This document shows, in pieces, positions 47,743 to 49,173 of a stretch of 64,000 nucleotides of DNA (positions within the stretch are counted from its first letter, which is position 1; each line of letters starts with the position of its first letter). This stretch comes from Escherichia coli (GTDB taxonomy: Bacteria > Pseudomonadota > Gammaproteobacteria > Enterobacterales > Enterobacteriaceae). The position numbers and the translations under genes are program-made. The DNA lies in assembly GCF_045037415.1 (NCBI RefSeq), contig NZ_CP173438.1; one strand, 5' to 3'. The notes beneath the pieces were generated by a model, which saw only the letters and a program-made list of their open reading frames with translations, was not told where the DNA came from and ran no database searches.

Positions 47743-49173
47743 TTAATGAACAAAACGTCCGGCACGAGACATAAATTCTTCTTCGCTCATCTCCTGTCCG
47801 TTAAAAACAACTTTACCCGGTGTATAACGCAGTTGCAGCGAGGCGGTATTGTTGTCAATCGTGATTAACTGCAACATCTGACCTAAGGTCATCATCCCGC
47901 TGATTTGTTTATCAGACTGCTTTTGCGCTTTTTCCGCATCCATTCCTTCAGATAAATTAAGCTGTTTTGCGGTTTCTGTGGCGACATTAAGCGGTAATTT
48001 CACATCAAAATTGAGCGATTTAATATCTTTGTTTGTGGATGATGAAGATTTGGCTGGGTCGGCAATACTGATATCCAGATTGGCATTTAGTTCGCCGAGT
48101 GCATTCTTCCATCTTACCGGTTGTTTAATGGTCGGCTCACTTTTTTGTAATAACGGTAAATACTCTTTGAACAATGCAGTATTCACTTCTTGCAGAGCAA
48201 CTTCATCGTTTGCTAACTCAGGGTGTGCAGCAAGCTGCTTCTGCATCGCAATGTTATACTGGATGATAAATTGGCGCACCGCTGAGGGATCAATAGATTC
48301 AGCAATCAATGACCACTCACCACTACCGAGTTGCTGATTCCCTTTTGTTAACTTATCAAGTTCGTAGGTCAGATTGACATTGATATAATCTTTGTCTTTA
48401 ACGCGATCCAGCTTGGTTTTTGCAACGAAAGCATCGATTTGGGCAACGTCTTCCCCGTGATTGATAATGTTAATCTGATTAAATTTCGACTCGCTTTCAC
48501 CAACCGGAAATTTCTTTTCTTCTAATCGCGCCAGAGAATCAATGGTAAAACTTTTCGCCGTTACTTTGTTCATTGGTGATAATTGCAGAACAATATCTTC
48601 AACTTTGCCTTCAATATCCAGGTTAGACAATGAACTATCATCACCATTAAAAGTAAACTGGCCTTCACCAAAAGAAAACTTTCCATACTCTGCAGGGGCA
48701 ACATCTAATGTCGTGGAGAATGAGCCACCAAACGCGAATCGCAATGTCGCTTCCACGGGCGATTTATTTTTCGCGGCGATAAATAGCGGTTGTGTCAGCT
48801 CATTATTCACTAAGTTCACTTTTGCCGCTGCCAGTGCTGGGATGACATTACCATGCATTAACATTGTGATGGGCAACGGACCGTGCTCAACATCCACATC
48901 AAATACAACTTTCTGGCCTGGCTTGATATTGAGATCGGGTGCACCGTTATCAAATGTCATTTGCATTTGAAAACGGGAATTAAAAAAACCTTTGTCAAAA
49001 TTTTTATAACTTAACGTCATGTCGTAGGCATGTTCACCTTTCTATTTAGCATCGTTAAAATCTTTAATAAACTTTTCGACACCTGGCTGAATTTGCGTAC
49101 CTGTGTACCATGTGCCACCACCCCAGATTACGGATAACGCAACAATGGCACCTGTAGCTGACTTACGTATCAT
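47743..49173 (-). pseudogene. yihF: yihF (DUF945 family) interrupted by in-frame amber codon at 49042-49044 (codon 44)
   Basis: N-terminal 43 codons (MIRKSATGAIVALSVIWGGGTWYTGTQIQPGVEKFIKDFNDAK) are in the same frame as the 425-codon downstream ORF, separated by TAG; full length would be 476 codons. Confidence 0.8.

Follow-up and report, generated by a model that had tools for sequence, protein, structure and literature searches.

The yihF gene of the 64-kb window (the whole stretch of Escherichia coli DNA analysed here) raises the question of how a stop codon came to lie near the beginning of a reading frame that other strains use to encode one long protein. The stop could be a sequencing error, a site of suppression or reinitiation, or a nonsense mutation that detaches an N-terminal membrane anchor, all of which were offered by an original prediction made from this DNA alone.

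Structure of the interrupted gene

The gene occupies positions 47743..49173 on the minus strand as a 477-codon frame, counting the terminal TAA, with an internal amber codon at codon 44. Its start ATG lies at 49173..49171 and its terminal TAA at 47745..47743. The minus-strand frame confirms the predicted amber after codon 43 at 49042–49044: the TAG at 49044..49042 (minus strand, codon 44 of 476) is in frame, 129 nt (43 codons) past the ATG, and the mutated base is 49044, which reads T on the gene strand in place of the ancestral A of an AAG (Lys) codon. The full frame of 1,431 nt has 43 sense codons ahead of the TAG and 432 behind it, giving 476 positions. Intact YihF of other strains is likewise 476 long, as the original prediction stated.

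Two open reading frames remain. An N-terminal remnant of 43 codons (MIRKSATGAIVALSVIWGGGTWYTGTQIQPGVEKFIKDFNDAK; 49045..49173, minus strand) holds the predicted membrane-anchor helix, and a residual ORF of 425 codons without the anchor runs from Met52 to the natural stop (47743..49020, minus strand). The earlier statement that these ORFs share a frame is right, but they are not separated by the TAG alone, because seven further sense codons (KGEHAYD) intervene between it and the Met52 ATG at 49020..49018. Programmed frameshifting was rejected as a candidate: both ORFs lie in one frame, which makes a shift unnecessary, and the stop is not preceded by a Shine–Dalgarno (SD) sequence combined with a slippery site.

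When the amber codon is repaired, the frame matches Pfam DUF945 (PF06097) over residues 4–464 (E = 2.8e-105) and scores 1,037.9 bits against the NCBIfam YihF equivalog NF008472 (PRK11367), whose cut-off is 738, which upholds the assignment of the gene as yihF. This full-length family match indicates that the break lies in a real gene rather than between a chance pair of ORFs. The 425-residue remnant covers DUF945 profile positions 54–459. An exhaustive HMMER search yielded 528 family cluster representatives at E <= 0.001; nearly all full-length DUF945 members align from residue ~4–7, and an alignment of 86 DUF945 homologues shows almost no variation at W22, G25 and N40.

An AlphaFold2 model of the protein (pLDDT 94.4, pTM 0.89) shows one long helix at residues 3–44, followed by a large body built of antiparallel beta-sheet and interrupted by helical inserts; a sequence search found no relative of YihF in the PDB. 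Because the modelled helix spans residues 3–44 and the TAG is codon 44, the stop cuts exactly between the predicted anchor helix and the beta body. DUF945 proteins are characterized by an N-terminal hydrophobic helix joined to a beta-rich body, a combination that the window allele does not encode. This yihF belongs to the DUF945 family by descent, yet it is unable to encode a complete member.

The surroundings of the gene are simple. Two promoter-like sites (49207..49275, minus strand), recognized as consensus matches only, lie upstream of the start, and a dsbA terminator hairpin (49284..49309, minus strand) separates yihF from the upstream gene. A GC-rich hairpin (47705..47738) lies between yihF and yihG, which converge. 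Within the gene, ~260 nt past its start, is an NsrR-type 11-1-11 inverted repeat (AAGTTGTATTTGATGTGGATGTT; 48889..48911, minus strand), which has one mismatch to the CFT073 yihF NsrR ChIP-seq site of PMC5320621 and is intact in the pseudogene. Since yihF stands alone as a monocistronic gene with hairpins on both sides, a convergent yihG and no gene downstream, the stop cannot act on other genes through polarity.

Ancestral codon and distribution of the mutation

Alignment to the yihF of other strains, which had been proposed as a way to find the ancestral codon, was run and identifies this codon as AAG. The yihF alleles of USVAST219 and GPEC102 (WP_001385583.1) differ from the window at only one of 1,431 nt, gene position 130, which is A in both strains and T in the window, and therefore their codon 44 is AAG (Lys). 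The same codon is present in all intact alleles compared, namely those of USVAST219, GPEC102, a BL21-derived strain, strain 550 and SE15. Judged from these alignments, one A-to-T transversion, K44amber, accounts for the lesion, and the window allele has not decayed further. The lack of decay besides the stop is expected for a lesion only a few decades old, yet it is also expected of a gene that is still used. An in-frame stop, an unbroken frame in close relatives and an identified ancestral sense codon (AAG) together form the pattern of a pseudogene produced by nonsense mutation.

The suspicion that the TAG might be a sequencing error is refuted by its abundance. A 61-mer centred on the TAG is matched exactly in 352 of 5,426 complete E. 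coli genomes, whose sources include humans, pigs and wastewater and which come from many laboratories. In a public assembly collection, the exact 43-residue and 425-residue ORFs each occur on at least 1,000 contigs, where they were named ‘hypothetical protein’ by GenBank submitters. A sequencing or assembly artefact would have to have recurred identically across many laboratories, hosts and platforms, and its probability is negligible. In addition, the RefSeq/PGAP annotation of two loci identical to the window, EC958_RS22210 and P423_RS22240 (JJ1886), reads ‘YdgA family protein’, pseudogene, ‘internal stop’. The pseudogene status of this yihF is already known through RefSeq and is in itself an ordinary finding.

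Before the lesion, yihF had the history that a pseudogene should have. The ancestral ST131 allele has dN/dS values of 0.13 and 0.21 relative to two other E. coli alleles, and a yihF match is present in 5,423 of 5,426 genomes; this low dN/dS and near-universal presence indicate a conserved core gene that was under purifying selection. An NsrR ChIP site lies inside yihF (PMC5320621), the gene is induced under several stresses (PMC9501238) and overexpression of YihF inhibits growth (PMC6116040). Our literature searches found no established YihF function and no yihF phenotype.

The 64-kb window belongs to E. coli ST131, being colinear over its whole length with strain EC958 and showing 5 mismatches in 64,000 bases. 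A 1,561-bp segment covering the locus is 100% identical in EC958, JJ1886, JJ1887, JJ2434, MNCRE44, uk_P46212 and many other O25b:H4-ST131 chromosomes. The intact and otherwise identical allele is found in at least 60 complete genomes, including SaT040, G749, ZH063 and CD306, which match it at 100% identity. According to Table 1 of PMC4933990, SaT040 and G749 are fimH22 (H22), ZH063 is fimH35 (H35) and CD306 is H30S, the fluoroquinolone-susceptible base of clade C; in the same table MNCRE44 is H30R1, and JJ2434, JJ1886, JJ1887 and uk_P46212 are H30Rx. The intact allele is carried by the clade B/C0 strains, and the TAG by the H30R1 strain and the four H30Rx strains.

Table 1 of Ben Zakour et al. 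2016 (PMC4850260) reports a small number of SNPs whose derived state occurs in clade C, with the ancestral state in all C0 strains, CD306 included, and the clade C-defining mutations listed there include potB, yhaK, yhiM and gyrA D87N. We used 61-mer probes carrying the derived alleles of potB (position 1244787) and yhiM (position 3921426) against the 5,426 complete genomes. Each probe has an exact match in 352 genomes, a number equal to the TAG count, and the same strains top the TAG, potB and yhiM match lists. On the basis of these equal counts (352, 352 and 352) and nine typed strains, K44amber appears to be coextensive with ST131 clade C1+C2 (H30R); among typed strains codon 44 is derived in C1/C2 and ancestral in C0, B and A. 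The equal counts and typed strains therefore place K44amber on the same branch as gyrA D87N. The C1/C2 split has been dated to ~1987 (PMC4850260). Thus, the predicted nonsense mutation that detaches the anchor is borne out, but the change is clade-wide rather than strain-specific, given its presence in 352 genomes, the same number as for two clade C markers.

A 61-mer spanning the fimH30-specific R166H codon was also tried as a counter of H30 strains and was dropped; it matches 442 genomes, including Nissle 1917, and is not specific to ST131.

The yihF SNP is not present in Tables 1 and 2 of PMC4850260 or in three of its text supplements, and literature searches found no paper describing the premature stop in ST131 yihF. 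The absence of K44amber from the published clade C SNP table seems to be a small new point. The yihF of SE15 (clade A; NC_013654.1 4025690-4027120) has 38 differences from the window in 1,431 positions, compared with 1 for the clade B/C0 allele, which suggests recombination in the yihF region between clade A and clades B/C. Such a region may have been masked from a ‘non-recombinant’ SNP set, and this is a possible reason why the yihF SNP is missing from the tables.

Several other features of the window were observed in these comparisons. Four of the five differences from EC958 form two adjacent dinucleotides in a 23S rRNA gene (54464-54475), which probably reflect rrn copy variation or gene conversion, and the fifth is at 21407 in an alpha/beta hydrolase gene. 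RefSeq annotates a 5′-truncated yiiG (DUF3829) pseudogene directly after fdhD at 8804-9358 on the minus strand (EC958 4462915-4463469). Relative to SE15 (clade A), the window lacks two genes after fdhD and the 5′ part of yiiG, as well as the whole frvABXR operon between yiiG and a carbohydrate porin gene. Between yihA and yihI, a 167-bp PGAP pseudogene (‘hypothetical protein, frameshifted; internal stop’) at 42149-42315 on the minus strand (EC958 4429958-4430124) is annotated in EC958 and SE15 alike, and probably represents spurious annotation of intergenic sequence.

Translation beyond the amber codon

It is conceivable that the gene still works, either through a restart at Met52 or through near-cognate readthrough of UAG that yields a useful product. 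The Met52 ATG begins 22 nt past the TAG, within 8 codons of it, with no other in-frame start in between, and it is preceded by an SD-like AGGTGA (49034..49039, minus strand). The predicted duplex of this motif with the anti-SD sequence has an energy of −4.3 kcal/mol, and that of the native yihF start −5.1. The downstream yihF ORF is undamaged, and lacI is a classical case of translation restarting downstream of an early amber mutation. However, the AGGTGA, which was recognized correctly in the original prediction but placed about 16 nt from the ATG, lies 13 nt upstream of it. The usual spacing between an SD sequence and its ATG is 5–9 nt. A gap of 13 nt falls outside this range and, by this measure, is predicted to be too long for efficient initiation at Met52.

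A restart product would also be of doubtful use. It would be without the membrane anchor and the conserved residues W22, G25 and N40, and, if the model is correct, a protein without helix 3–44 would remain in the cytoplasm rather than being anchored in the inner membrane. In E. coli, UAG is naturally read through at a frequency that is typically far below 1%, and the 64-kb window holds no amber-suppressor tRNA, its sole tRNA being tRNA-Glu(UUC). Moreover, a stop codon used for programmed recoding should be conserved, but the TAG is apparently limited to ST131 clade C and is not kept in any of the relatives compared outside this clade. One TAG carrier, ST131 strain UID2309220027, even tolerates an insertion in the gene: its yihF (NZ_CM142691.1 3731508-3733845) is additionally split by a 777-bp IS1, a second hit that fits a gene no longer needed. 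Residual function is unlikely because a restart or readthrough product would be mislocalized, and we judge the chance that yihF still works to be very small. The suggestion of suppression or reinitiation at this site is, in view of the spacing, the distribution of the TAG, the tRNA content of the window and the anchorless product, unsupported.

A further small feature overlaps this region. An out-of-frame mini-ORF of 4 codons (ATG-CCT-ACG-ACA-TGA, encoding MPTT; 49017-49031, minus strand) begins 3 nt past the AGGTGA, and its TGA overlaps the Met52 ATG (ATGA) in an arrangement that resembles translational coupling. Because intact alleles have the same arrangement, the mini-ORF at 49031 is most likely coincidental.

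Fixation of the mutation

We conclude with high confidence that the stop in yihF is a young loss-of-function mutation that reached fixation in ST131 clade C1/C2 through clonal descent. According to this model, an A-to-T transversion would have converted Lys44 (AAG) to amber (TAG) in the ancestor of the fluoroquinolone-resistant C1/C2 strains (H30R/H30Rx), after the H30S/C0 strains had branched off, and would then have been inherited by every sampled descendant. Ribosomes loading at the native start would terminate once 43 residues, up to the end of the N-terminal anchor helix, had been made; the beta-rich body of ~430 residues that completes this envelope protein of the DUF945/YdgA family would go unmade, or would be made only in trace amounts and without its anchor. 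We infer from the sequence that YihF function is lost in these strains. Most simply, the allele would have hitch-hiked clonally to fixation alongside the gyrA/parC resistance mutations of the same branch, rather than through selection on yihF.

An alternative is that K44amber was itself selected, wherein the loss of a stress-induced, NsrR-bound envelope protein gave the H30R ancestor a gain in fitness that helped its pandemic expansion, for example in gut colonization or as compensation for the cost of gyrA/parC mutation, and tables of non-recombinant SNPs overlooked the change. K44amber is one of ~7 point mutations between C0 and C and the only one among them that destroys a gene, yihF otherwise belongs to the conserved core genome and evolves under purifying selection, and the equal genome counts suggest that no revertant has arisen. 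However, the clade is strictly clonal, so that all changes on the branch were fixed together, and the literature searched reports no yihF phenotype. A single nonsense hit is unremarkable because the branch carries ~7 SNPs and an estimated ~4–5% of random coding substitutions are nonsense changes. We therefore consider adaptive loss unlikely, and favour hitch-hiking of a loss-of-function allele.

K44amber provides a clean single-base marker that apparently matches ST131 clade C1+C2. It would also mean that a core DUF945 envelope gene is dispensable in a highly successful human-associated clone of E. coli, and that ST131 clade C constitutes a natural knockout for the study of YihF. Very few mutations lie on the branch that gave rise to fluoroquinolone resistance, and discussion of them has usually been confined to gyrA and parC; a putative loss-of-function change is now added to that set.

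The yihF SNP has apparently the same distribution as the clade C mutations of PMC4850260, being derived in C1/C2 and ancestral in CD306, and unlike the entries of that table it is a nonsense change, which neither the table nor the text supplements contain. The RefSeq pseudogenes (NZ_HG941718.1 and NC_022648.1) represent the same locus at 100% identity, annotated without the codon, its ancestral state or the clade. YdgA, the E. coli DUF945 paralogue (PF06097), has in common with YihF the N-terminal anchor and beta-rich body found throughout the family, but is encoded at a separate locus. The lacI genes that yield restart proteins resemble yihF in having an early amber codon followed by a nearby in-frame AUG with an SD-like sequence; in contrast to these, a restart in yihF would yield a product stripped of the helix that targets it to the membrane, and the SD is poorly spaced. 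The clade B/C0 allele (WP_001385583.1) is identical to the window at 1,430 of 1,431 nt and has the same neighbours, dsbA and yihG, but its codon 44 is AAG (Lys), and the annotation describes an intact protein of 476 amino acids.
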